From Escherichia phage vB_EcoM_EC001, in sequence record MN445185.1: 64,000 nucleotides of DNA; one strand, written 5' to 3'. A program made the position numbers and the translations under genes. Numbering within the stretch: the first letter of the stretch is position 1; each line of letters begins with the position of its first letter. Positions 6,419 to 64,000 of this stretch are shown piece by piece. The notes under the pieces were generated by a model. It was given only the letters and a program-made list of their open reading frames with translations, had not been told where the DNA came from and ran no database searches.

Positions 6419-6420
6419 TC

Positions 6421-6442
6421 TGAGATAGATATTATCTACAGG
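6421..6442 (+). promoter_or_regulatory. candidate phage promoter, AT-rich motif family A (TGAGATAGATATTATCTACAGG)
   Basis: Intergenic, ~30 nt upstream of the 6472 start; shares CTSAGAYAKATATTAYCT core with sites at 14950 and 46607. Confidence 0.4.
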
Positions 6443-6471
6443 GACGTAACCTTAAGGAGAATTTATTCACG

Positions 6472-7206
6472 ATGCTTAAAGTCGAAGTGCCAGTGCTTTT
6501 AAACCTCACGCCCCAGTTCTTTGAAGCGTTGTTCGAAAAGCATTGGCCCGCGTTCGCGAAGAACGAACTAAAGGATAACCCACAGTGGTATCCTCTGCGC
6601 GATGAATTCAAGTATACAGCCATCAACGTCTGTATAGAAGTCTTCACTGCGTGGTTACAAGAGATGTACGACTGCATCAACACCGAACGGCTGTTCACGC
6701 TAGAACATGTAGAGATTAATGTTGTTGACGTCTACGAAGGTTACTCCTACGAAGAAGGCATTACTGCCACGGGGTTAAGCCAGCAAGACGTTGAAGAACA
6801 AATCTTTGCGTGGATCGAGTGGTTCACGGAAAAGTTGATGCTGGCTGATTTTGTCACGCAGGTGGAAGATGTATTCATCCCAATGTACGAGCGGTTAGCT
6901 GAGATACGTCGTAACCATCGACTGCTCGGTTACTGGTATGACACTTATACCACCTCCTCAACACTGTGGTCTTCCGCTACTGCCGCTTTTGGCATAACTG
7001 AAGGCGATTACGATGTCGTTCATTCTGGCCCTTGGCAGTACGGTTTCGGCACACTGTGGCACGAACTGACCGATGTCATGTGTCTGGACTTTTATCTCTG
7101 TGAAGGTAAGTTTTACACGGATAACTGCGTGAGCCAAATTCCGAATGGTGCGACGGTGGTGATGTGTCGCATCCGTAAAGAAGTCTCTAAGAAACTAAAC
7201 TACTGA
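6472..7206 (+). CDS. hypothetical acidic protein (244 aa)
   Basis: Long ORF with SD AAGGAGA upstream. Confidence 0.6.
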   Translation: MLKVEVPVLLNLTPQFFEALFEKHWPAFAKNELKDNPQWYPLRDEFKYTAINVCIEVFTAWLQEMYDCINTERLFTLEHVEINVVDVYEGYSYEEGITATGLSQQDVEEQIFAWIEWFTEKLMLADFVTQVEDVFIPMYERLAEIRRNHRLLGYWYDTYTTSSTLWSSATAAFGITEGDYDVVHSGPWQYGFGTLWHELTDVMCLDFYLCEGKFYTDNCVSQIPNGATVVMCRIRKEVSKKLNY

Positions 7207-8559: not shown

Positions 8560-9098
8560 AAATATTCATTGATTTACTCGATGACGAATTTCGCGAAATA
8601 TTTCCAGCGGCGTTGTTCGAGTTTAAACGCAAGTGTGAAGACTATCTAATACCGAAGAATATCGATCGTCAGCACCTCGCCGGGCTTATCTCTGCGGCGT
8701 ACGTCAACATCGCGGTAAATGAAGTTCATCAACTCGCCCAGCGTATTGCGTGTTTCGAATACAACGACGAAGACATTGAAGACGGCTTCCTGCAGTCTAA
8801 GATGGGTCGCTTCTCACTCGAACTCAAGACCGATGAAGTTATTGATAAGGTCGGTAAAGCGTTTGATGAAATGAAAGACATCGAAATGATGATTAAAATG
8901 TCTGGACCGGAAGCTGGGCCGTTGAAAGAAGCGTGGGAAAATCTCAACCGCGAAGGGTATAAAAAGATGTATATGGAGGAGTTCACCACTATGCTACGTC
9001 ATCTCGAAGCGCAGATCTGGGAGCATATCGTTTCACGTCTGAAAGAAATACTGATTGTGGTCGAACCAATGCAGCCCATCACTATTGGCAATTTCTAG
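8556..9098 (+). CDS. hypothetical protein (180 aa)
   Basis: ATGA start/stop overlap with upstream gene (translational coupling). Confidence 0.6.
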   Translation: MKIFIDLLDDEFREIFPAALFEFKRKCEDYLIPKNIDRQHLAGLISAAYVNIAVNEVHQLAQRIACFEYNDEDIEDGFLQSKMGRFSLELKTDEVIDKVGKAFDEMKDIEMMIKMSGPEAGPLKEAWENLNREGYKKMYMEEFTTMLRHLEAQIWEHIVSRLKEILIVVEPMQPITIGNF

Positions 9099-9102
9099 TT
9101 AA

Positions 9103-9135
9103 ACGGACACTCTTCGGGGTGTCCGTAGTTTTATT
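9103..9135 (+). terminator. rho-independent terminator
   Basis: Hairpin ACGGACAC..GTGTCCGT followed by T-rich tract. Confidence 0.65.
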
Positions 9136-9149
9136 TTAATCGACCATTA
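9136..9149 (+). promoter_or_regulatory. conserved 14-mer TTAATCGACCATTA (motif family B), candidate phage promoter or 5' leader element
   Basis: Exact 14-mer 17 nt upstream of ATG 9167; identical copies at 46667 and 47536, each 17-19 nt before a start codon. Confidence 0.45.
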
Positions 9150-9166
9150 ATCTAAAGGAGTATTAA

Positions 9167-10090
9167 ATGGACAGCTTTCTTTTTGATTTGGCAGAATCGG
9201 TAAATGTAGATGTAATCGGTATGCGCGAATCCCCGAGTAATTTCTTAAACGGTCTTACTAAAATCGACGAACGTGTGAAATCCAGAAGTGGAGATCCCGC
9301 CATCATCGAGCAATACGCAATAGCCCATTGTGGCGAGATAGGCCAGCACTTTATACCGATTGAGGCGTTCCTAAAGAACTGCTTCGCCGAAGAATGCACC
9401 GCAGACTTCCTGTCTCTTGCCTACGGCTGGCGATACGGGGGTATCCAAATGGAATTTGATCTTAATATTTTTGAACAAGTTCTACTTGGCGACGTTCTCA
9501 CTGAGATACCACGCAGCTGGATAGACAAGATTCCCGGTTGGGCCGTCTCCTTTTCAGTGTGCTATCGCGCTAAAGATATCGGTATCCAAGAAAAGACTTA
9601 CGTTTTCGGTCGGCGAATGTTTAAAGGGAAAGATTGTTTAACAATGATGATTTTTGGAAAACGTATCGAGGGGGAAACCTTTGAAATCGTGGACGTGGGT
9701 GACGGCTTTGTATCCTTGCGTGTGGCGGAAACTGGTACGCCGGCCAATGAGAAAACGTTACGCATTGTCGGCGCTACCATGTTTACATTCTCACTGATCC
9801 CGCACAACCCTACACCCGTCAAACTGAGACAATTAACTGGAAAGAAACGTATCGCCAATTACCACATTGAACCAAAATCTAAACCGACTGTCCTCTCCAC
9901 CGTAAAAGCACAAAGCGAGTATCTTGAAGAATTTGATACTGATACGGAGAAAAGAACACAAGGTAGCAGATGTGCGCATATGCGTCGTGCACACTGGTGT
10001 ACTTACTGGCTCGGTCCACGTGACGGGAATCGGACAAAGATTTTGAAATGGATACCGCCGACATTTGTCAACGGTTCTAAATGCAAATAA
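9167..10090 (+). CDS. hypothetical protein (307 aa)
   Basis: Long ORF with SD AAAGGAG upstream. Confidence 0.65.
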   Translation: MDSFLFDLAESVNVDVIGMRESPSNFLNGLTKIDERVKSRSGDPAIIEQYAIAHCGEIGQHFIPIEAFLKNCFAEECTADFLSLAYGWRYGGIQMEFDLNIFEQVLLGDVLTEIPRSWIDKIPGWAVSFSVCYRAKDIGIQEKTYVFGRRMFKGKDCLTMMIFGKRIEGETFEIVDVGDGFVSLRVAETGTPANEKTLRIVGATMFTFSLIPHNPTPVKLRQLTGKKRIANYHIEPKSKPTVLSTVKAQSEYLEEFDTDTEKRTQGSRCAHMRRAHWCTYWLGPRDGNRTKILKWIPPTFVNGSKCK

Positions 10091-10099
10091 AATAAAGCC

Positions 10100-10150
10100 T
10101 ACCCACTCCCCTTATGGGAGTGGGTAATGCTTATTTTTTTTTTATTTTTT
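10100..10150. terminator. bidirectional rho-independent terminator
   Basis: Stem TACCCACTCCC/GGGAGTGGGTA with long T-tract and upstream A-tract; stem nearly identical to the terminator at 281-318. Confidence 0.8.
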
Positions 10151-10897
10151 GTTTGCTTTCAGGGTCTTGAGGCGATCACCGGTTACGTTCAGGCATTCTG
10201 TCAGTTCATTAATCTGTTTCATAAACAGTCCGAACAGCTCAACCCAGTCAGCACCCATGTCAGCCATTTTCACTAACTCTGCCGCCACATTAGGATGGAC
10301 TTGTGAATTAGAGATAATGTCTACAGAGACGTTGATGCTTTCAACTGTACGGTCAATACTTTTCTGAAGTTTCTTAGTCACTTCCAGGTTCAGCGCTTTG
10401 GCACGATTAAATGCAACATCGATCTCGCCCGCGCTGTGGTAGGTCTTTTCAATCGGACGCTGGTCAATGACGTTGTTGGTATACGACTTCGCCAGTTTCT
10501 CAACCAGATCTTTTGGATTGATATTTTTCAGCGGGTAGTTCAGGTCTTTGAACTTAAACCCAATCGGCAGAGTTAACATGCCCAGGTCATGGGTCATCGC
10601 ACCGAAACGTTTATCGATGGGTGTTAAAACCCCTTCCTGAATCTTCTGGAGCACAGCCCATACAGATTCCAACCGTTCTATGTGGTCCATCACATACGTG
10701 TTGAAGCCCGGAGGTACGGGTACAAGCATTCCGGTAAAGTTTAAAAACTTCTCTTGCTGCATCCACTTGGACACATCAGACATGTCGTCATAGGTGGTCA
10801 GCGCGAGTTCCTGTTGAGAGCCGCTAAAGGCTTTAGGCAGAATCGTGGATGCTTTGGCAACAAAGCCCGACAACGCTGCAAGTGGATTAACATTCAT
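10142..10897 (-). CDS. hypothetical protein (251 aa), isolated reverse-strand gene
   Basis: Long ORF antisense to flanking + operons, with its own upstream intergenic region 10898-10995. Confidence 0.6.
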   Translation of the reverse strand: MNVNPLAALSGFVAKASTILPKAFSGSQQELALTTYDDMSDVSKWMQQEKFLNFTGMLVPVPPGFNTYVMDHIERLESVWAVLQKIQEGVLTPIDKRFGAMTHDLGMLTLPIGFKFKDLNYPLKNINPKDLVEKLAKSYTNNVIDQRPIEKTYHSAGEIDVAFNRAKALNLEVTKKLQKSIDRTVESINVSVDIISNSQVHPNVAAELVKMADMGADWVELFGLFMKQINELTECLNVTGDRLKTLKANKK

Positions 10898-14949: not shown

Positions 14950-14979
14950 AAAAAGAACTCAGACAGATATTATCTATCC
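14950..14979 (+). promoter_or_regulatory. candidate phage promoter, AT-rich motif family A (AAAAAGAACTCAGACAGATATTATCTATCC)
   Basis: In divergent intergenic region, ~30 nt upstream of the 15010 start; near-identical to the 46607 site. Confidence 0.45.
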
Positions 14980-15009
14980 GAGACAACATCTCATAATAGG
15001 ATAACACCT

Positions 15010-20103: not shown

Positions 20104-20956
20104 TATTATTCAGCAGACTCAGGCGGTTGATGATTGGTACCGGCAAGCGAAGATTTACCAATACGGGACACGCGAGCAGCAGCTAGCCAAGTTCTATCGC
20201 ACATTAGGCGACGTCGCTGAAGGTGTGCAGAAGATGGACAACTTGAAAGTGGCGGCGGCCATGGGTCGCTCTCTTTGGGCGTTCGTTGGTCTGTTGCACT
20301 TCGGCAAGCACACGAACGTGGGAGATTTCGTTATTCCACTGGATGCAGCTATAAAAGACCGCACCACGGGAAACACCAAAGAGTTCCGTCTTCATAACCT
20401 TTTTGTTGTTGCCACCGAAGTGGTTGGACTCATATTGCAAGATGAGCACGAGCCCCACAGCTACGTTACCGAGCTGCATAGTTTGGCGCGACAATACCGA
20501 ATGTTGGCGCGTATCTGCGGCCTGGAATTCGGCCGTGTAATATACAACGGACATCGTGTGCTAATCAACACGAAAGGTGAAATGAACGGCATCGGGTTGT
20601 TTGTTCCCGCGTCTGATGATTTTACTGGCGATAAATTGCCTGGTTCTAGACAGATGTCTGGGCCAGCCATCTGTCTGATGTTCCAGACTGTCCTGGACAG
20701 TTGTGTCGCTACGCACCTTGCGCCCTATTGCCACCGGCCGTTTAAACGCGACGAGTTGCCGACAATCAATGCTGCACTCGCAACTACGTTAAACGAACTG
20801 CTGGACAAATATGTTCGTGACTCAGTGCGCTGGAATCGTATCCTGTTCGAACGTGTACCTGAAATAACCGCAGCCTACACAGATGGCGGTGTGAATGTGG
20901 TGATGAATGATGATCTACTTTACTTATTTGAAAGCTTAAAGAGGGATAGTATCTAA
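20096..20956 (+). CDS. hypothetical protein (286 aa), coupled to thymidylate synthase
   Basis: ATG at 20096 with SD AGGAGGA; stop overlaps the thymidylate synthase start (TAATG); MazG-like pyrophosphatase considered but motif match is weak. Confidence 0.5.
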
Positions 20957-21987
20957 TGAAGCAATACCTTGAAACGATGCAGAATATTCTGGATGAAGGG
21001 CATGTTAAAGGCGACCGTACTGGAACAGGGACGCTCTCCGTCTTTGGTCGCCAAATGCGTTTTGATTTGCGCAAAGGTTTCCCGCTAGTCACGACTAAAA
21101 AACTCCACCTGCGTTCTATTATTCACGAACTGCTGTGGTTCCTTAGTGGCGATACCAACACCAAATATCTGGAAGATAACGGCGTTACCATTTGGCGGGA
21201 GTGGCAAGATGAAAATGGGAACCTTGGCCCCCTGTATGGGGAACAGTGGAGACGTTGGAAAGATGTGAAACTGGTGCCTAAGAAAAATGCAGCTTTACTC
21301 GAGAAACTGCAAGATGCAGGATACGTGGATTATGGCGACGCGGACGACGGTTCACAAATGTTCGATGCGCGTGTACTTCTGAAAGAGCACGACCAAATCT
21401 CTAAGGTGATTGACCAACTGCGTAACGATCCTGACAGTCGCCGTATTATTGTCAGCGCATGGAATGTGGGTGAGTTGGATCAAATGGCGTTAGCTCCGTG
21501 TCATGCGTTCTTTCAGTTCTACACTCGTGAGCTGTCTATCGACGAGCGGGTGAATTGGGCAGAAGATAACGATAACGAACTCTGGTCTGATTATGTCCAC
21601 AGCACGTACGTACCCGCACCTAAGCGATTAGAGTGGTTGGATAAAGCCAACGTGCCAACCCGTATGTTGTCTTGTCAGCTGTATGCACGTTCCCAAGACT
21701 TCTTCCTGGGAACACCGTTCAACATCGCGTCTTACGCATTACTCGTGCACATGGTAGCTCAACAAGTTAACATGGTGCCAGGCGATTTCGTTTGGAGCGG
21801 CGGTGACGTGCATCTGTACTCCAACCATCTGGAGCAGGCCAAGCTGCAGCTGACGCGTGAACCTTTACCTTTGCCGAAACTGGTCATCAAACGTAAACCG
21901 GAATCTATCTTCGGTTATAAGTTCGATGATTTTGAGATCCAGGATTACGTATCACACGACCCAATTAAAGCGCCTGTCGCTATCTAA
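20956..21987 (+). CDS. thyA: thymidylate synthase (ThyA family) with two insertions relative to E. coli ThyA
   Basis: N-terminus [31 protein letters not shown], active-site [12 protein letters not shown]-terminus [25 protein letters not shown] all near-identical to E. coli ThyA (from memory). Confidence 0.92.
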
Positions 21988-23564: not shown

Positions 23565-24044
23565 ATGTCTATAACTCGGATCGATTATCGTGCCGTGGTA
23601 AAAGAACTGTCCAAAGGTCTTATCGAACTGGACTCCGATGAAGCCCGTAGCTGTGGCTTTTTACCGCATATTGCACTGAGTGAGTTCCGCACTATCCGCT
23701 ATGGAGCTGGTCGTCAGAAAGGCGTTACAACACACGCTGTTGATATGTCAGCAAAGTTCCACGGCAGCGTTCTGTATCTGGTTCACAACGAAGCATTACG
23801 GAGCGAAGTGGTGGAGAAATTCCATGAAAAAGCCGCTGGGAACGGTTGGTTGACCGTACACTGTAACTACTTGCCCGAGGGTTGGAAACGCGCGACGGGT
23901 GCTGGTATATCCGGCTACGAGAAATTCGGCTTGGTTATTGTCGACGAAGCGGGTTTCTTCTTCAACAAGTTCAGTTACGATAAAATCTATCGCAGTCTGG
24001 TCGACGTAGTAACGCCAGACGTTGTGATACACCTGATTAATTAA
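23565..24044 (+). CDS. hypothetical protein (159 aa) with Walker-B-like LVIVDEAG
   Basis: Contains GAGRQKGVTT (non-canonical P-loop-like) and LVIVDEAG; too degenerate to assign. Confidence 0.45.
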   Translation: MSITRIDYRAVVKELSKGLIELDSDEARSCGFLPHIALSEFRTIRYGAGRQKGVTTHAVDMSAKFHGSVLYLVHNEALRSEVVEKFHEKAAGNGWLTVHCNYLPEGWKRATGAGISGYEKFGLVIVDEAGFFFNKFSYDKIYRSLVDVVTPDVVIHLIN

Positions 24045-43358: not shown

Positions 43359-44087
43359 GTGGTCGTGAGCGCCATTGAAACAGCACGTCGTGACGCGACG
43401 AAAATTCATGCAGATTTAGTGGACCAAGGCACGGCCACCATCACCAAAGGGGGATGTTACATTTACATCCCTGTTGGCTTCGTGGCTAAAGAGCTGGCGG
43501 TAATTTCTTCGCAAGTCGAAATCGTCGGCATTTTCGCTATCTCCACTGACCGCAAAACCTACGGGGTATCGAACGTCACGACGTTCATTGAAATTACCCC
43601 GTCGGCGTTTGAGGAAATTGATGTTCAGGGTGTGCCGTATTACGAGTTCCGTTTTGACCCCGGCACGGTGGTGTTCCCCAACCGAATGCTGCAAGTGCTC
43701 TCCTCGCCAGTCTACAACATCGCTTCGTACATCTACGACTTCGGAAACCGGCCTTTCTGGTACACCGCAGTAGATGACGCTGAGCTATTGTCTGACACTA
43801 AGACGTGGAACGGCTTTACGGTCTTTAACGACCAGATCACCGCTGACTGTTATGCTGCCCACACACAGCGTAAGGTTGGCGACCCGCGGACGTATTTCCG
43901 CTACACCCTGAAAAAAGACAGCGATTTGATGAATCGGGTGCAGTTTATTCCGCTGCGTTCAGGTTCATTGAACAAAACTTCCCGGTTGGCCAAGATTGCA
44001 GATGTGGAACTGAAACAGGGTATCCGTTCTGCACTCCAGGTCGATCCGGTACGTGCAGAGCCACTCGAGGATTTGTATATGAGGTAA
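43359..44087 (+). CDS. hypothetical protein (242 aa)
   Basis: Long ORF. Confidence 0.55.
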   Translation: MVVSAIETARRDATKIHADLVDQGTATITKGGCYIYIPVGFVAKELAVISSQVEIVGIFAISTDRKTYGVSNVTTFIEITPSAFEEIDVQGVPYYEFRFDPGTVVFPNRMLQVLSSPVYNIASYIYDFGNRPFWYTAVDDAELLSDTKTWNGFTVFNDQITADCYAAHTQRKVGDPRTYFRYTLKKDSDLMNRVQFIPLRSGSLNKTSRLAKIADVELKQGIRSALQVDPVRAEPLEDLYMR

Positions 44088-44149
44088 CTGAGGTAGGGTT
44101 ATTGTACGTCCCCAATAACCCGCTTCGGTAATAACAACTGGGGAAACCA

Positions 44150-44953
44150 ATGGAAAACTTGTCACTACGTTATAACTGCGTGGCACTCGCTGGGGTCAAT
44201 AAAGGGGCAACGCTAAAGAAAGATGCGGACGGATATTACTACGTCCTGTTAGGTGCATTGAATATTTTCAACTCTGAGAATATTTACTACGCCTATAACG
44301 AGTCAAAACATGTCTTCGAGCGCTCTAACGTTTTCATGCGTAAAGTTTTAGCGGGGAATCTCTTCGGTGAAGAAGACCATCCGCAATACGAACAAGGCAT
44401 GAGCGAAGCCCAGTGGATCGAACGTAACGAATGGATCGAAACGCGTAACGTGTGTATGCACATTCGCGAAGTAGAAGTGAAGCCGACTGACCAGATGTGT
44501 AACGGTCTGCCGGTGATGGAAATCTGGGGTTGGATTAAACCTAACCGTGAACGTGGTCCGCTTCTGGCGGAAGCACTAGAGAACCCACATCAGAACGTGT
44601 GTTTCTCACTGCGTGCTATCGTTCGTGAAGGTCGTCTGGGTACGACAATCGTACGCCGCATCGATAAACTGGTCACCTTTGACTGGGTTATTGAAGATGG
44701 CCTGCAAATCTGTAACAAATACTCTGCGATTCAACGCGGTAGTAAAGTGGCACAGGAATCTACTCGCACTTACGTCGACCGCCCTATCAGTCGTCAAGTG
44801 TTGGAAGACATCCTGTACAATCCGACAACGACCAGCGCTGTTGCCACTGAGTCCCGTCGTGGCGCTCTCCAGCAACTCGCGCAGGAATACCTGCAGCTGG
44901 CTCCGAAAGTGTCCAATCTGCGGGTAATGGGCATGGGTGTAAGGAGCTGGTAA
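44150..44953 (+). CDS. hypothetical protein (267 aa)
   Basis: Long ORF. Confidence 0.6.
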   Translation: MENLSLRYNCVALAGVNKGATLKKDADGYYYVLLGALNIFNSENIYYAYNESKHVFERSNVFMRKVLAGNLFGEEDHPQYEQGMSEAQWIERNEWIETRNVCMHIREVEVKPTDQMCNGLPVMEIWGWIKPNRERGPLLAEALENPHQNVCFSLRAIVREGRLGTTIVRRIDKLVTFDWVIEDGLQICNKYSAIQRGSKVAQESTRTYVDRPISRQVLEDILYNPTTTSAVATESRRGALQQLAQEYLQLAPKVSNLRVMGMGVRSW

Positions 44954-44956
44954 AAA

Positions 44957-45586
44957 ATGGCAGAACATATCGACCCGTCATTAGAGCGGTGGTGTGAACG
45001 CCAGATGCCGCACGTCGCCAAAAAGTTGACGTTACGTAAACTGACTGAACAGCCGCTGCATTTAAGCAAGTGTAAGATACCGACGTTTTCGCCGCGTATC
45101 CCACTTTCGTGCGCGCCAGATGAAGACAAGACCGTGCCCAGAATTTGCTGCTCGGTAGATTTAGAGCGAGCGATTAAGGGTGCACGTCACAACTTCTCTG
45201 CAATCGAAATACCCACACGATTGTATCTTTACGGTTTTGATGAGCGTGATGTAGCGCAGCCTTCGGTCAACCTGACGCAGGAACCGAATCGGGCGGGTGA
45301 AGTATGGATTGTACCACACCGCATGTCGAACTGGGATATCAAACCGACTTACCTGGGCGAGATGCGGTTGTCAGAACTTCGCAACGGCGGCCATGTTTTT
45401 GTCTATCACTTAAGTTTCGGACAAGATGTGCGCCTGTCTACCAGTCAACTGCTGAAAGCCGGCGAATTTTATCGACTGATTATCAGCGTCAACTGGGAGC
45501 GCGGTGAAGTTAAGGTCTCGGAGGCGGTCGCCACTGCGCGTACTGCTTTTGATAACGCACTGAACGAATACGTCGTTTCACCGTAG
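44957..45586 (+). CDS. hypothetical protein (209 aa)
   Basis: Long ORF immediately after upstream stop. Confidence 0.55.
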   Translation: MAEHIDPSLERWCERQMPHVAKKLTLRKLTEQPLHLSKCKIPTFSPRIPLSCAPDEDKTVPRICCSVDLERAIKGARHNFSAIEIPTRLYLYGFDERDVAQPSVNLTQEPNRAGEVWIVPHRMSNWDIKPTYLGEMRLSELRNGGHVFVYHLSFGQDVRLSTSQLLKAGEFYRLIISVNWERGEVKVSEAVATARTAFDNALNEYVVSP

Positions 45587-45641
45587 TGCTTAGTTCGTGG
45601 TCTGCAAATCACAACTAAAAACCACTACAGTAGGGGGACGC

Positions 45642-45941
45642 ATGAAGGTCGTTAACATCGCAATACCTCCGACCCTTCGTTGTTTGACGCCGGAAGAACT
45701 GAAAGCGTTAGCGATCTACGCTATCCAAGGAAAGGCTGGTAAAGAAGTGCTTGCCGAAATCTTATCGGAACGTTTTGATACAAAACGCAAGATTAATAAC
45801 ATCATCTCCGGAATCGCGTCGCTAGATATCATGGCACTCTATTGCGACATTAAAGAGGCTGGAGTGACAATCGACTATCGCCGTACTTACTTTCTACTCA
45901 CTGAGCCGTATCGTTCGAATATGGCAATAAAGCAGATGTAA
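45642..45941 (+). CDS. hypothetical protein (99 aa)
   Basis: ATG at 45642 with SD AGGGGGA; track ORF from 45597. Confidence 0.45.
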   Translation: MKVVNIAIPPTLRCLTPEELKALAIYAIQGKAGKEVLAEILSERFDTKRKINNIISGIASLDIMALYCDIKEAGVTIDYRRTYFLLTEPYRSNMAIKQM

Positions 45942-45994
45942 TTTTTTACATGACGTTGGTTTCATGTGTTGGGGAACAAAATAAGGACAAGAAG

Positions 45995-46543
45995 ATGTTT
46001 TATCTGGATAGCGATGGCGTTTTTGCACGCTGGCGTAAATACGTTTTATCCACACATTTTCCCGGAATGACGATTAAAGAGTTTAACGCACTACCTGAAC
46101 TCCGTCGCCGTAGTTTGGTTCGTTCGATGTATCAGAACGATCCTGACTTGTTTTACAAACTCGAACCAATTGAGGGTGTAGAGCGAATCCTGGAAACGGT
46201 AGATAGACTTTGCGACAGTTGGGCAATACTCACCTCTGGGTCAGAAGATCACTACGACCACCAATTGGTCGTGGATTCAAAACAACGGTGGTTCATGAAG
46301 CACTTTGGGGTACCAGCTGACAAAGTCATCGTCACCGAAAGTTCAGGGCAGAAGAAAGCTTACGCCTCGCGAGGTAATTTGCTTGTCGACGATTATGGTC
46401 GTAACTGTCGAGAATGGATTTTGCAAGGTGGCGCGGCGATATGGTCGCGAACTGAAGAACCGAACATTGATGGCATTTGCCTCCAGTGTGAAGCGTTCTA
46501 CAATGACCCGATTAGTCACTCGGGGACACTACTGCAAGTCTAA
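45995..46543 (+). CDS. HAD-superfamily phosphatase, likely 5'(3')-deoxyribonucleotidase-type
   Basis: N-terminal FYLDSDGVFA (HAD motif I DxDG), ILTSGS (motif II), LLVDDYGRN (motif IV-like). Confidence 0.5.
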   Translation: MFYLDSDGVFARWRKYVLSTHFPGMTIKEFNALPELRRRSLVRSMYQNDPDLFYKLEPIEGVERILETVDRLCDSWAILTSGSEDHYDHQLVVDSKQRWFMKHFGVPADKVIVTESSGQKKAYASRGNLLVDDYGRNCREWILQGGAAIWSRTEEPNIDGICLQCEAFYNDPISHSGTLLQV

Positions 46544-46553
46544 GCTCCACTAG

Positions 46554-46596
46554 GCTCATCCTATCTTCGGATACGGGTGAGTCTTTTTATTTTATT
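46554..46596 (+). terminator. rho-independent terminator
   Basis: CTCATCCTATC-TTCG-GATACGGGTGAG hairpin (one G-U pair) followed by T-tract. Confidence 0.7.
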
Positions 46597-46606
46597 AATT
46601 GCATTC

Positions 46607-46635
46607 AAAAAGAACTGAGATATATATTACTTAGG
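46607..46635 (+). promoter_or_regulatory. candidate phage promoter, AT-rich motif family A (AAAAAGAACTGAGATATATATTACTTAGG)
   Basis: Intergenic; contains TATATTAC; same architecture as the 14950 site. Confidence 0.45.
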
Positions 46636-46666
46636 TGAGCGTTACACGTTAACGCTTTAATCGACC

Positions 46667-46680
46667 ATTACCCAGAAGGA
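46667..46680 (+). promoter_or_regulatory. conserved 14-mer TTAATCGACCATTA (motif family B)
   Basis: Exact copy 19 nt upstream of ATG 46690 (via SD AGAAGGAG). Confidence 0.45.
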
Positions 46681-46689
46681 GTATTTACA

Positions 46690-47088
46690 ATGACTAACCA
46701 ACTACGCCAAGACCCGTTTGTTGCCATGATGCTTTGTGCTAAAGCCGAGAGCAACGAAGCCGATTTAATTCGTCTGTTGACTGATGACGAATACCTTATC
46801 GCTGAGCGCGATAAACGTTTAAAAGAACTCTACAAGCCAGAAACCGGTGAATCGCTCGACAATCAAGACGCCTGGAAGTTTCTTATTCTCATTGCTGATG
46901 AAAAGTGGCGAGCAGAAAATCCCATCGTCTGTGATATTACAGACCTACCGTACAAATACGGCGGACTCATCACCAGCGACCTGCATCTTAAAGCGTACTT
47001 TGATGGCGAAGCAATACAAGAGCTGCAAGATGTTCTTATTACAGCAACGAACACTTTGAGACGTTTGCGCGCTGAGCAGCTGATCTGA
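46690..47088 (+). CDS. hypothetical protein (132 aa)
   Basis: ORF with strong SD; preceded by the family B motif. Confidence 0.55.
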   Translation: MTNQLRQDPFVAMMLCAKAESNEADLIRLLTDDEYLIAERDKRLKELYKPETGESLDNQDAWKFLILIADEKWRAENPIVCDITDLPYKYGGLITSDLHLKAYFDGEAIQELQDVLITATNTLRRLRAEQLI

Positions 47089-47142
47089 TCTCTCAAAAAT
47101 AACGAATCGTACAAATCCTTTGACTGTGTAGGAAGGAATAAA

Positions 47143-47532
47143 ATGAAAATCGCAGAGGGGTTAGTAGATGCGTGCAGAGATCCATTTACGCTATGGGTTC
47201 TTTGTGGCTTGCGCCGAGACGATCGTTTCGGTGAGTTTGTTCGAAATCCAGATGCTTTACTAAGCTTCGTAGAAAGCGAGGAGAAGCGTTTAGAGGAGAT
47301 TAAGGAGGAAAGTAGTACCCTTACACCAGATATGGTGGTTTATAGCCGTATGACGTCACACAGGTGGCGTACGACCCATCGGCTGAAGGGAACCTCAATG
47401 AAGGAATTGATTGAAGGGTTATCAAAGGCGCTTTCGTCTGATAACATTATCTGGCCGGTGATGTATACCAACGAAGACCACTCTGATAACGTGAAGGTTA
47501 CACTGACACGTTGTTATCACACATTCTCGTAG
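47143..47532 (+). CDS. hypothetical protein (129 aa)
   Basis: ORF with SD AGGAAGGA upstream. Confidence 0.5.
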   Translation: MKIAEGLVDACRDPFTLWVLCGLRRDDRFGEFVRNPDALLSFVESEEKRLEEIKEESSTLTPDMVVYSRMTSHRWRTTHRLKGTSMKELIEGLSKALSSDNIIWPVMYTNEDHSDNVKVTLTRCYHTFS

Positions 47533-47535
47533 TAG

Positions 47536-47549
47536 TTAATCGACCATTA
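47536..47549 (+). promoter_or_regulatory. conserved 14-mer TTAATCGACCATTA (motif family B)
   Basis: Exact copy 17 nt upstream of ATG 47567. Confidence 0.45.
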
Positions 47550-47566
47550 TCGTAAGGAATATTTAC

Positions 47567-48238
47567 ATGCAGGGCACTGAACTCAACAAACTTTGGGAAA
47601 AACTGGTTCGTCAATTCCGCGACTTCTATCGTTATACCGATAGTGCGCATCGCATGGATCACATCAACTCAGTTAAATCAAATGCAATTCGTATCGCGTA
47701 TATGCTTGGGCAAACCGAACACCTGAAGCTGATACTGATTGCGGTGGCAGCTCATGATATCTTCTCTACCAAAGAAGACCGTGCGTCTCACCACATCAAA
47801 GGGTATAGCTGGATACTGGATAACAAACCAGTGCTCAAACGTAAGTATAAACTTACCGATGATGAATGTTTGACGATTGCCCATGCAGTCTTAGAACACC
47901 GCAGTTCTCACAAAGGGAACTACAACGGGATTGTCTCTGAGATAGTTGCCGCAGCTGACCGTGGTATACCGTCTGTAGATGACGTGAGCAATTACATGCA
48001 CCGTTCTTATCTGTTTGCCCGTGAGCAGGGTAAAAGTAAAGGTGATGCAAAATTCCATGCCGTTGGTCATGTCCAACAGAAGTTCGGACGCAACGGTGTT
48101 AGTAATGTCCCTAGTTGGTACGGTACGCTCTTCGCAGAGCGCATTCTGGAACGCAGGGATTTCGTGGAGCAGCTAGATATTAGCTATTTCACAGATACCA
48201 TTATCGACGACCTCGAAGCTCGTCTTTCACACGATTAA
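47567..48238 (+). CDS. HD-domain phosphohydrolase, putative
   Basis: AHRMDH..(30 aa)..IAVAAHDIFS fits the H..HD metal-binding signature. Confidence 0.5.
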   Translation: MQGTELNKLWEKLVRQFRDFYRYTDSAHRMDHINSVKSNAIRIAYMLGQTEHLKLILIAVAAHDIFSTKEDRASHHIKGYSWILDNKPVLKRKYKLTDDECLTIAHAVLEHRSSHKGNYNGIVSEIVAAADRGIPSVDDVSNYMHRSYLFAREQGKSKGDAKFHAVGHVQQKFGRNGVSNVPSWYGTLFAERILERRDFVEQLDISYFTDTIIDDLEARLSHD

Positions 48239-48264
48239 TCACACTGACCTTAAGGAATATTAAG

Positions 48265-48753
48265 ATGGCTGAAGTAACTTCAATGAAAGCACTGCACAAA
48301 CTGATCGCTGAACTGGACACGCCGGCAGCAACCCTGTCCGAAGACCTGGCGCTGAACGCTGACCCGCTGGTTAAGATTTACGAAGAAACACTCCCCGTAA
48401 CGAAAGTTGGGGATGTGGACTATCGCTTCACACTGGAAGACGCTGACGCTCTGCGACAGCACGACGCAAACTTCACTGAACTGTTCGGTGGCGTTGCCGG
48501 TGGTCTGATTGCTGACCGTGCAAAAGCGGATAGCGAAATCGGTGCACTGGACTTAACGCTCGATATCGGCAACGCAGCATTCTCTACCGTGTTCTCTCGC
48601 CCGGTTACTGAAAACCCAACTCAGAAAGAATGGGCAGCGTCCATCTCTTACGGTTTCGGTTCTCCGAAGTCTAAAGCGTTGGAAGGCAAGCTGCGTAAAG
48701 AGTTTGCCAAGTCCATGATGGCAACCGATGAAGAAGACGAAGACGACGAATAA
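48265..48753 (+). CDS. hypothetical protein (162 aa) with strongly acidic C-terminal tail (TDEEDEDDE)
   Basis: ORF with SD AAGGAATA upstream. Confidence 0.55.
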   Translation: MAEVTSMKALHKLIAELDTPAATLSEDLALNADPLVKIYEETLPVTKVGDVDYRFTLEDADALRQHDANFTELFGGVAGGLIADRAKADSEIGALDLTLDIGNAAFSTVFSRPVTENPTQKEWAASISYGFGSPKSKALEGKLRKEFAKSMMATDEEDEDDE

Positions 48754-48956
48754 TGATTCCGTCCAGCCCAAAGGAACTCGCTGAGCTACTCGGGGCTAAA
48801 GCGGAATGTCATCCTAATGTGAATCCCGCTACTGGGTTACGTTGGGATGGCACCCTTGCGTCACACGAGGAAATCGGTCTCACCGTCACCTTCCCTAAAC
48901 CTATGCCGAAGCCGCTGCAGTTAGAAGGGCTTGCTTCGCTATACGGTCGGAAGTAG
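48753..48956 (+). CDS. hypothetical small protein (67 aa)
   Basis: TAATG overlap with upstream stop. Confidence 0.4.
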   Translation: MIPSSPKELAELLGAKAECHPNVNPATGLRWDGTLASHEEIGLTVTFPKPMPKPLQLEGLASLYGRK

Positions 48957-48963
48957 TAAACAA

Positions 48964-48998
48964 TGGGGTGGTCTTATGACTGCCCTATTTTTTTTTTG
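48964..48998 (+). terminator. rho-independent terminator (stem with G-U pairs)
   Basis: GGGTGGTC-TTAT-GACTGCCC hairpin followed by a T-tract of ten. Confidence 0.55.
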
Positions 48999-49012
48999 AT
49001 TTTGGAGCTACA

Positions 49013-49555
49013 ATGAAGCAACTTAATACTCTCGGTCAGGACGATATCAAACCGATTCCATCTGATATGAAACGTGAAGACATTATCCGCCACATCAATC
49101 AGATCGGCGACGTGTTTACGTTGTCCATGAAAGCTATACTGGAAGATGCTTTCGAAACCATTGCCGAATATCCGGTTGAGATTATTCCGCACACCATCAA
49201 CGGCTACCAGCGTTTTCTCGACACGATCACCAAAGGTAGTAGCGGTCGTATTATCGCAGGTTTTATCATCCGCTTTAAGTGCCTGTTGCAAGTAGAGCTG
49301 GGCGACGATGTACTCCGTCGGCTGGAACACGAACTCATTAGCATGTCCGCCAACGACATTCTCGCGGCAGAATCAGGGCAAGGTTATAAAGACGGGATGT
49401 CTCTCTGGAAGATTGCCCACCCTGACTTGGGCGATGTTCAACCACCGTCTGAATTCGATGTGCTCGTAACCTATCTGTTATTGCTGCAAATCAAGAACTT
49501 GCTGATTCGTGCCAATGCGCAGCGTGAAATCGATGCTGGCCAACCGAAAAAATAA
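49013..49555 (+). CDS. hypothetical protein (180 aa)
   Basis: ORF with SD GGAGC upstream. Confidence 0.55.
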   Translation: MKQLNTLGQDDIKPIPSDMKREDIIRHINQIGDVFTLSMKAILEDAFETIAEYPVEIIPHTINGYQRFLDTITKGSSGRIIAGFIIRFKCLLQVELGDDVLRRLEHELISMSANDILAAESGQGYKDGMSLWKIAHPDLGDVQPPSEFDVLVTYLLLLQIKNLLIRANAQREIDAGQPKK

Positions 49556-49604
49556 AACGTACCTCTCTCCAAATGGAGAGAGGTAACGCTTGTTTTTTTT
49601 TTGT
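49546..49604. terminator. bidirectional rho-independent terminator
   Basis: CCTCTCTCC-AAAT-GGAGAGAGG hairpin with long T-tract and upstream A-tract, between convergent genes. Confidence 0.8.
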
Positions 49605-49605
49605 C

Positions 49606-50481
49606 TTAGCGCATCTGGTTGGCCATCTGCTCGTCGGAGACAGAGTTGTAACCACCTGGGGTTGCGTTGACGTCCGGGTTGATACCGTCGGTCTGCTGAG
49701 ACGGAGTAAGCCACAGTTTGCGTTCGTAAGGACGCAGACCGTACAGCTTCATACGATCCAGCTCTTTCGCAGCGGCCTGCATCGGACCCCAACCTGTCCA
49801 TTGCTGGGAGGTAAAGGCGATTGACAGTTCGTTAATCTGCGGACCAGTGTTGGTTTCACGCTCACCGATATCCTGACCGGCGGTTTCCGGAATCATGTTC
49901 GTTAACCACCACGCATTCTGCGGTTTACGCTGATATGCATCCGGTTCGATGAACAGCACGGTCATGCTGTACATATCCGGCAGGTGGTCAGGAACGTTCG
50001 GGTTGATTGCGGCCAGGCCTGGGTGACCAGTCTGGGGATCGCAAACACCGTAAACCAGCCACGCCCACAGCATGTTCTGGTACACCTTCCCGAGTTTATC
50101 CGGGGTGGTGAAGGTAACAGAGGACAGTGCTTCCGTTACCAGACCAGCTTCATACTGGGTGCGGTTGTTACGGCCCTGCTGAGTTTCAACAGCCGCATGG
50201 CTCAGGGTTTTATCCAGGCCAGTAATCTCGGAGTGAACCTCGATAAAGGACTTGATAGCCTGACGCCACATCTGCGGGTTCGGCATGTAATCCACCCAAC
50301 GAGGGAATTCCATGACGCGCGCAATGACATTACGACGCAGACGAGAGGCGTTAGTAACGAACTTGCCAACCTGTCCAACCGGGCCGTTTTGGCCCGAGGA
50401 GAACGCGTTGACCATATCGTACTGGCCGCCGTCGACGTGCAGACCCTGATCAGGCAAAATGAGACGATCTTTGATTGCCAT
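49606..50481 (-). CDS. hypothetical structural protein (291 aa), possible tail tube
   Basis: ORF directly downstream of the 681-aa gene; function inferred only from size and order. Confidence 0.3.
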   Translation of the reverse strand: MAIKDRLILPDQGLHVDGGQYDMVNAFSSGQNGPVGQVGKFVTNASRLRRNVIARVMEFPRWVDYMPNPQMWRQAIKSFIEVHSEITGLDKTLSHAAVETQQGRNNRTQYEAGLVTEALSSVTFTTPDKLGKVYQNMLWAWLVYGVCDPQTGHPGLAAINPNVPDHLPDMYSMTVLFIEPDAYQRKPQNAWWLTNMIPETAGQDIGERETNTGPQINELSIAFTSQQWTGWGPMQAAAKELDRMKLYGLRPYERKLWLTPSQQTDGINPDVNATPGGYNSVSDEQMANQMR

Positions 50482-63289: not shown

Positions 63290-64000
63290 CTGATTAAAGA
63301 GGTCTAGGAAACACCAGAAAACGATTAAGTGGTCTGGATGTAGGGTAGCTCATTTTTGATAGTTTATCGTTTTCTAGGGTCAATTACGTGCGTTTTAGAG
63401 GGGGTCTTGCATCGAGTCGGTGAATTTATTTTTGTCGGGGCGAGGAAATTCAGGGAATGGGGATTCAGGATTGTATGTTTTTTAACCAGTTATTAAAAAC
63501 GCTCTAGAAAGCGCTAGAACGAGATTTATACCTGACCCAGTACACTTGGGTTCCCCCTACCGGAAAATCGCGCCAGCGGGCCGCTGAGAGCGCGAGAGAG
63601 CCATTCCCGTTTCGGTTCCGGGACGACGGTCGCGGCCGGCGACGACGATCACACGTTGGGTAGCACTTCGTGCCATGTCTGGGTGAAAACTGGATCGTTC
63701 TGTAACCGACACACACTGTCGGTTACTTACGAGTTCTTTGGGTTGTTTAACTCACTCTAAAATCCCCCTTAGGGGATAATTTAATCTAATTCTCAAAATT
63801 TCTTTTTAAAACAATCACTTAGATTGTTTTTTAGATCGATCCTGTGGATCGGGTCGAAGACCCTTTCCTTATACGCGTGCGCGTGCGCACACCCGTATCC
63901 TCCAGGATCTTTTAAAATATATAATAATATTAAATATAATAATACCTTTAGGTATTATATTTAATTATTATAATTATTTATATAAATAAATATATTAATA
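63290..64000. other. ~710-bp structured non-coding region: hairpins with ACAC loops, GC-rich island, alternating CG tract, terminal AT-rich block
   Basis: No credible ORF; perfect inverted repeat GTAACCGACA-CACAC-TGTCGGTTAC near 63700; CGATCC-TGT-GGATCG; ACGCGTGCGCGTGCGCACAC; final ~100 bp almost pure A/T with ATAATACC-TTTA-GGTATTAT. Confidence 0.6.

Follow-up and report, generated by a model that had tools for sequence, protein, structure and literature searches.

A conserved box ahead of ribosome-binding sites in SPN3US-like jumbo phages as a candidate leader operator of early-operon genes

The stretch analysed here, 64,000 nt of Escherichia phage vB_EcoM_EC001 (accession no. MN445185.1; hereafter the window), comes from an SPN3US-like jumbo phage (genus Seoulvirus) and contains three exact copies of a 14-mer, TTAATCGACCATTA, which we call the box. 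All three lie on the plus strand just upstream of a Shine-Dalgarno (SD) sequence and a start codon. The nearest relative is phage JN03 (99.4% identity across the region of copy 1), and positions 44000–50000 of the window are 98.5–98.8% identical to Salmonella phages SPN3US and SEGD1. SPN3US is a 240-kb phiKZ-related jumbo phage of the same genus, and its positions 177623–240413 are the counterpart of the window, the alignment wrapping to position 1 of the SPN3US record. The features around the three copies are as follows (class A and class B are two early-type promoter motifs described below; gp numbers are those of RefSeq unless another source is named).

6420–6445, plus strand: class B early-type promoter-like site, GAGATAGATATTATCT..., heading the operon (ATG at 6472) that reaches copy 1
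9103–9135, plus strand: intrinsic-terminator-like hairpin (9103–9126, 10 bp) with a T-rich tail, between the gp053 orthologue and copy 1
9136–9149, plus strand: box copy 1, with no adjoining early promoter, directly 3′ of the terminator-like hairpin and T-tail
9155–9160, plus strand: SD AAGGAG, serving the open reading frame (ORF) that starts at 9167
9167–10090, plus strand: accessory ORF of 307 amino acids (aa), phrog_6160 (a PHROG of unknown function), served by copy 1
46617–46639, plus strand: class A early promoter GAGATATATATTACTTAGGTGAG, of the virion RNA polymerase type, matching the phiKZ, 201phi2-1 and OBP early consensus
46638–46656, plus strand: hairpin AGCGTTA / loop CACGT / TAACGCT (7 bp) at the predicted transcript 5′ end
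46657–46670, plus strand: box copy 2, within a complete module of promoter, hairpin, box, SD and ATG
46676–46681, plus strand: SD AAGGAG of ORF 46690–47088, which is SPN3US gp017 (gp249 in the literature)
47536–47549, plus strand: box copy 3, intercistronic, beginning 3 nt past the stop codon (47530–47532) of ORF 47143–47532
47554–47558, plus strand: SD AAGGA of the HD-domain gene 47567–48238

The box is the only 14-mer occurring three or more times in the window, and none of 100 shuffled windows contained any copy (zero expected, three observed). Matches with three mismatches numbered seven against 5.96 expected, which is the chance rate, and lay inside coding sequence. The gaps from box to ATG are 17, 19 and 17 nt (start codons at 9167, 46690 and 47567). 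The first-pass annotation, made from the letters of the window, was thus right about three identical copies lying 17–19 nt ahead of an ATG with a strong SD (AAGGAG, AAGGAG and AAGGA); it had set the middle copy at 46667–46680, and this position, like the start coordinate 46667 given to the whole feature, is 10 nt off, since copy 2 begins at 46657. Copies 2 and 3 share an operon, in which the HD-domain gene comes two genes after copy 2. Neither copy 1 nor copy 3 adjoins an early promoter, yet each lies in an operon headed by an early-type promoter, copy 1 following the last gene of the operon that starts at the class B site 6420–6445.

The whole SPN3US genome was searched for relatives of the 14-mer with up to three mismatches, a search that the first-pass annotation had proposed. 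It recovered a family of about 12 members with the consensus yWAWTCGACYATTA, all on the plus strand in sense orientation and all followed by 4–6 nt, an AAGGAG-like SD and an ATG (an iterated position weight matrix scan drifted into coding-region noise and was excluded from the counts). The segment TCGACYATTA occurs seven times in SPN3US, in all seven cases in non-coding sequence, on the plus strand and at most 30 nt ahead of a start codon, not at equal frequency in coding regions or in random orientation. Its 8-mer core TCGACYAT has 10 of its 28 SPN3US occurrences within the 6.4% of the genome that is non-coding. At the eight clearest sites the G of GAC stands 24–27 nt 5′ of the ATG; recognisable early-type promoter cores in SPN3US are 33–104 nt from their own ATG. 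Conservation had been described as perfect, and this holds for the window alone. In SPN3US, which is 98–99% identical, the exact 14-mer occurs at one site only, the flanking positions vary, and the orthologue of copy 2 reads ...GACTATTA. Because position 10 is freely C or T, the three-fold identity in the window is in part luck.

The initiation region AAGGAGTATT that follows the SD is the generally optimal one of this phage and is present elsewhere without a box; the box is therefore an extra that only certain ribosome-binding sites carry. One weaker SPN3US site, at 23829, turns canonical when the gp236 start is moved 27 nt upstream in frame: the ATG at 23859 in the SPN3US record (L002) comes with a GGAG SD and stands at the canonical 24 nt from the box, and the annotated start at 23886 is thus probably 27 nt too far downstream. 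The genes downstream of the boxes belong to PHROG families of unknown function and have no Pfam domain, except for one helix-turn-helix (HTH) protein; an annotated HD-domain protein is the only other product with an assigned feature. Inferring the role of the box from the functions of these genes was uninformative.

Transcription in phages related to phiKZ relies on two RNA polymerases, both multisubunit: the virion brings in the first, and the second is synthesised in the infected cell (PMC7598289). Their early consensus is TATATTAC in phiKZ, ...TATATTACDWHDGTG in 201phi2-1 and TTTCARRYAKATATTATYWAAGTG in OBP and N1M2 (PMC7058600, Table 2), and transcription from such promoters begins about 10 bp past the AT-rich core (PMC7598289). 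In SPN3US, the motif CAGATATATATTACYTAGGTGAG (class A) matches this published family and occurs in seven copies, all seven followed by a hairpin and a box-like sequence and then by SD and ATG. Only a few nucleotides separate the start of the hairpin from the presumed start of transcription, and the hairpin arms vary between sites and lineages with pairing retained. Class A promoters with an immediate 5′ hairpin were seen at SPN3US 4426, 56293, 65412, 94238, 113985, 165686 and 223276 and at 46617–46656 of the window, and the hairpin is frequently followed by a short U-run. A second motif, AGATAGATATTATCT..GTGA (class B), partly palindromic, occurs at about 12 SPN3US sites and at 6420–6445 and 14960–14982 of the window, and leads directly to the SD with no hairpin or box, except at about one of the 12 sites; one class B site heads an operon with two annotated RNA polymerase beta-subunit genes. 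A third pattern, observed in SPN3US intergenic regions, consists of a terminator T-run with TTACG, followed about 15–20 nt further on by TATR or TATGAC (for example upstream of coordinates 5534, 11544, 88449, 168900 and 181064); from its sequence and position, TTACG...TATR/TATGAC probably corresponds in SPN3US to the middle (TACT at −22) and late (TATG) signals of phiKZ. The box has no match to any of these three SPN3US patterns.

Boxes also stand ahead of internal cistrons in SPN3US, at gp210 after gp211 and at gp015 after gp017 and gp016. The box of gp082 is preceded by its own early-type promoter, a 5′ hairpin and a long terminator-like hairpin. Such an extra terminator-like hairpin with a T-run was seen between the 5′ hairpin and the box at SPN3US 165686–165783 and 167500–167622; in these two leaders it could be an attenuator or the source of an early RNA of about 60–80 nt. 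A module with a box also precedes the SPN3US gene for a Cro/C1-type HTH protein (gp165; matches to HTH_3 and related Pfam families).

At the orthologous site 5′ of gp249 (RefSeq gp017), the promoter and TCGAC are invariant in seven lineages at 68–77% overall identity, and the hairpin arms (AGCGTTA, AGATTA, AACTTGC) differ with pairing kept. The core TCGAC/GACYAT is likewise kept at orthologous sites, and the spacing from box to SD shifts in concert within each lineage, being long in SPN3US, phiEaH2 and Asesino and short in Machina, ChrisDB and Caitlin. The forms of box and SD are as follows.

SPN3US: TCGACYATTA-N4-6-AAGGA (long form)
phiEaH2: TAATCGACCATTTAACCTAAAGGA (long form)
ChrisDB, Caitlin and an uncultured 237-kb phage: TGACYATCAAGGA
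Uncultured 225-kb lineage: CGACTTGTTAA...AGGAG

In ChrisDB the box abuts the SD (GACTATCAAGGA), and the HD gene of the uncultured 225-kb lineage still carries TAATCGAC-ATG-TAAGG. In the whole Machina genome the family takes the form WTNGACTWTCGAGGA, and box and SD directly adjoin, e.g. GACTATCGAGGA; the sequence GACTWTCGAGG has eight plus-strand copies, all at gene starts and 13–15 nt before the ATG. Class A modules account for five of these, and the other three are solitary, one of them overlapping the stop codon of the upstream gene. Two of the seven Machina class A modules have no box. A scan of IMG/VR with the class A promoter sequence yielded about 40 distinct genuine modules in at least eight lineages, in most of which a hairpin forms at the predicted 5′ end or close to it; a search by the HD-protein locus gave only two IMG/VR loci. 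The phiKZ early promoters that were inspected have no such box, and because of this the box is taken to be specific to the SPN3US-like clade of giant Salmonella and Erwinia phages. Non-coding enrichment, sense orientation, position 5′ of the SD and conservation at orthologous sites of 68–77% identity bear out the suggestion of the first-pass annotation that the repeat is a functional element tied to gene starts.

On these comparisons of sequence, the box is a real conserved control sequence ahead of the ribosome-binding sites of about a dozen early-operon genes, and it can be regarded as a clade-specific cis-regulatory element of phage early genes. We tentatively favour, with a probability of about 0.4, the reading that it is a leader operator, an SD-adjacent site for a trans-acting factor that would set the translation, and hence the stability, of a small early regulon. 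The virion RNA polymerase would start at a class A (TATATTAC-type) promoter, and the 5′-terminal nucleotides of the resulting mRNA would form a stabilising hairpin; the box would follow this hairpin in the transcript, with the SD 4–6 nt further on, and the same box would stand ahead of selected internal cistrons of early-promoter operons. As RNA, it would be the recognition site of a trans-acting, probably phage-encoded factor, which by binding beside the SD would set ribosome access and thus the fate of this set of early messages. The box has the layout of an operator in that it lies in the initiation regions of several mRNAs, on the sense strand and at a fixed distance from SD and AUG. The invariance of TCGAC and promoter over seven lineages, together with covarying hairpin arms, supports the leader reading.

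We infer action at the RNA level from anatomy, enrichment, the rules of strand and position, and conservation. It is favoured because every copy is on the sense strand within a region transcribed from an early-type promoter, because the box supplements certain ribosome-binding sites, and because its core is mostly predicted to be unpaired (predicted unpaired probability 0.66–0.88 at 10 of 11 sites, against 0.39–0.58 in the flanks). Three further observations argue at the same time for action as RNA and against the box being a second promoter (middle or 'continuous'), at or just after which a non-virion multisubunit RNA polymerase would start a transcript with a very short leader, keeping the genes expressed once early transcription ends. 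The distance of the box from SD and ATG is fixed, and that of recognisable SPN3US promoters is not. The box runs right up to the SD in Machina, ChrisDB and Caitlin, and one Machina copy overlaps a stop codon, which leaves little room for a start site and leader and would put the SD at the extreme 5′ end of the transcript or outside it. Finally, the box accompanies class A and not class B early promoters, which would be odd for an independent promoter. The box is also unlike the TATG-type or TTACG...TATR-type sites that are located where middle and late promoters are expected.

Several points nevertheless weigh against the leader operator. Predicted accessibility is just modestly above background, copy 1 being exceptional at 0.43; the trans-acting factor is still a hypothetical one; and no transcript-end or ribosome data for the SPN3US-like clade were found in the searchable literature. 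The concerted change in spacing between box and SD could reflect gene conversion of a cassette, not selection at each site. The remaining points favour the second promoter: copy 1 and the SPN3US boxes at 167590 and 165760 lie immediately 3′ of terminator-like hairpins with T-runs, and tandem early and later promoters before one gene have precedent in the AR9 'continuous' genes and PHIKZ054 (PMC7598289). Promoters of non-virion polymerases can moreover be very short (TATG; AACA-N6-TW) and phage-specific (PMC7598289), and the orientation and upstream position of the box are compatible with this role. The argument from terminators is weakened because 22 of the 47 terminator-preceded plus-strand genes of SPN3US have no recognisable promoter before the ATG, indicating that read-through is common, and an upstream terminator was accordingly rejected as proof of a promoter. 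Taken together, we consider a second promoter doubtful, if conceivable. The first-pass annotation had offered a promoter, a processing site or a translational operator; the first is possible without being favoured, and the other two fit the anatomy better.

The position of the box between a hairpin and the SD also bears on RNA processing, in which a sequence-specific endoribonuclease of phage or host would cut within the box and part the coding region from the 5′ hairpin or the upstream cistron, timing the decay or activation of early messages. The box usually has a hairpin on its 5′ flank, 5′-terminal or terminator-like, is predicted to be single-stranded and lies just before the SD, and SPN3US encodes annotated ribonucleases (gp059 and gp060). 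RNase E prefers AU-rich sites of the form RAUUW or RN↓WUU, which the 3′ part of the box, AUUA, resembles. This preference does not explain UCGAC, the most conserved part, the purine at −2 is missing, and the Machina-type box GACUAUCGAGGA fits even worse. SPN3US 57144 and Machina 67283 have no nearby hairpin, and no nuclease could be linked to the box. A processing site is therefore judged unlikely.

The SPN3US form TTAATCGACCATTAA is a 12/15 imperfect palindrome of a size typical of HTH dimers, and the gene of the HTH protein gp165 is itself preceded by a complete module, so that a DNA operator was also considered, on which this or another phage protein, bound downstream of early promoters, would block or modulate transcription. 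Two features speak against it, an asymmetric pattern of conservation and the lack of a palindrome outside Seoulvirus: conservation peaks at the centre, CGACY, and is lowest in the left half-site, and in Machina, ChrisDB and Caitlin the box has no palindromic form. A palindromic HTH operator was rejected since the half-sites are not symmetrically conserved across the family. The leader of the Machina HTH gene has no box, a roadblock would need no fixed distance to the SD, and all copies have a single orientation. We regard a DNA operator as very unlikely.

A further explanation arises at the locus of copy 1. About 1 kb of the window (9077–10084), holding the copy 1 ORF (9167–10090), has no match in SPN3US, and among about 35 Seoulvirus genomes in the database the intact 307-aa ORF (at least 99% protein identity) was found only in JN03 and Lh1B. 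SaP7 and Asesino carry alleles that are 40–44% identical at the protein level, with the same left flank (terminator hairpin, T-run, box and SD) and a conserved right flank, and ChrisDB has a degenerate form of the left flank. The right boundary is a bidirectional terminator at 10099–10127. From these comparisons the locus looks like a gene-replacement hotspot, with cassette exchange between conserved regulatory flanks, and T4-type PeSL cassettes behave similarly (PMC2839356). The box might accordingly be a functionless part of a recombining cassette of promoter, hairpin, box and SD that provides homology for swaps of accessory genes and carries the box along. The presence or absence of the copy 1 gene, its divergent alleles, the lineage-wise change between long and short spacing and the PeSL precedent suit this explanation. 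Box-only copies, however, exist without promoter or hairpin, the two Machina class A modules without a box show that it is separable, and TCGAC does not change between orthologous sites while the hairpin and spacer beside it diverge, which points to selection on the box itself. Hitch-hiking is thus quite unlikely.

Two other regions of the window differ from SPN3US. Positions 20162–20956 (gp038) and 21549–21714 (an internal part of the thymidylate synthase gene) gave no megablast match to SPN3US, in surroundings that are 95–98% identical, which suggests local mosaicism. Near the right end, 63744 of the window aligns with SPN3US 240413 and 63802 with position 1, leaving about 57 additional bases (63745–63801) between them; this join is consistent with a circularly permuted genome or with another choice of record start.

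A wider role for the box as RNA was also considered: together with the 5′ hairpin it might be a tag, or 'zip code', marking a subset of the immediate-early messages of nucleus-forming jumbo phages as a regulon for selective handling by a phage factor. We give this only a small chance. If it were true, the handling might be preferential ribosome loading against competing host mRNA, or release of the messages out of the early infection vesicle or the phage nucleus, and the box would mark a post-transcriptional regulon of a kind not yet described in the phiKZ-like family.

SPN3US is the genetic model of enterobacterial nucleus-forming jumbo phages, and its expression signals are essentially unmapped. 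Neither the box sequence nor transcript mapping in SPN3US-like phages was found in the searchable literature. The AR9 genome paper reportedly predicted early promoters across the phiKZ-like family, and the class A promoter may already be shown in its figures. The box downstream of the class A motif is not mentioned in the review that summarises the AR9 early-promoter work, according to which bioinformatic prediction in the phiKZ-like family is possible for early promoters only (PMC7598289). The present analysis defines a second conserved signal, tightly tied to one early-promoter subclass (class A), and with it a compact module of promoter, 5′ hairpin, box and SD with about 12 target genes per genome. 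As an operator, the box would imply a regulator that acts on early genes after transcription; as a promoter, it would reveal a new specificity for a non-canonical multisubunit RNA polymerase. In both cases it helps annotation, as at the gp236 start, and the engineering of expression cassettes in SPN3US-like phages.

Compared with known systems, the phiKZ-like early promoters are matched by GAGATATATATTACTTAGGTGAG at 46617–46639, just 5′ of copy 2, which explains the origin of the leader that contains the box. The 14-mer differs from them in having no AT-rich character and in its position, about 30 nt 3′ of the presumed transcription start. The box was rejected as an early promoter, as it lacks the AT-rich motif of about 10 nt (TATATTAC or ATATTAT, near −10 and T-rich upstream), and that motif stands separately at 46617–46639 and at about 19 other SPN3US sites. 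Middle and late promoters of phiKZ and AR9 (TACT at −22 in phiKZ middle promoters, TATG at the start site in phiKZ late promoters, AACA-N6-TW in AR9 late promoters; PMC7598289) are likewise short, phage-specific motifs read by a non-canonical multisubunit polymerase, and some of their genes also have an early promoter. The box has no sequence similarity to them: none of TATG, TACT and AACA-N6-TW is a conserved part of the box, and the distance from box to SD is fixed whereas that of the SPN3US TTACG...TATR/TATGAC sites is not. A new promoter class, matching a specificity particular to the SPN3US polymerase, is conceivable. Several beta/beta′-like subunits are among the 266 features of the whole SPN3US annotation, and gp35 was named as a non-virion beta′ subunit in the J Virol 2016 SPN3US paper.

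The first-pass annotation had noted a partial resemblance to promoters of single-subunit RNA polymerases. The likeness to the T7-type promoter TAATACGACTCACTATAG is superficial (TAAT-CGAC-...-ATTA) and the comparison failed: CACTATAG (−7 to +1) and the GGG start are absent, 14 nt stand against a consensus of about 19–23 bp, other bases are conserved (core TCGACYAT), and the box abuts the SD in sister genera. Judged by its annotation, the whole 240-kb SPN3US genome has no single-subunit RNA polymerase that could be the cognate enzyme. A sigma-70 consensus scan with 16–18 nt spacing found no promoter at any of the three copies, and any −10-like match at the box would start transcription at or after the ATG. 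An epsilon-type enhancer was rejected because the duplex energy with E. coli 16S rRNA was no better than that of shuffled sequences (48–98% as good or better). An IHF (integration host factor) site, WATCAR-N4-TTR, is partially matched in SPN3US only and is absent from the Machina form, and was dropped; TCGA as a methylation or restriction target was rejected since most Machina copies lack it. A mini-hairpin UUAAU/AUUAA inside the box was likewise rejected, its arms showing no covariation across sites by inspection. Rfam covariance models gave no match with E ≤ 1 around copies 2 and 3 and, near copy 1, only weak matches to unrelated small RNAs (sRNAs) over the terminator region 10063–10277. Genome scans for an antisense or sRNA partner returned only palindromic self-matches on the reverse strand in non-coding DNA.

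Post-transcriptional regulons marked by elements near SD and AUG include the T4 RegA-type translational operators and the 'upstream box' of cspA-family mRNAs. Like these, the box is a short sense-strand element in the initiation regions of a set of mRNAs. It has no sequence relationship to them, and RegA sites overlap the AUG, whereas the box is 5′ of the SD. The T4-type PeSL cassettes (PMC2839356) likewise combine an early promoter with a stem-loop and are repeated near small accessory genes that vary between close relatives, as the promoter-hairpin module is repeated seven times in SPN3US and copy 1 flanks a variable gene. The types of promoter and stem-loop differ: a PeSL has a sigma-70-like promoter and a stem-loop that terminates efficiently, whereas here the promoter is of the virion-polymerase type and the hairpin lies at the transcript 5′ end. 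The box adds a third conserved part, absent from PeSL, that can also occur alone.

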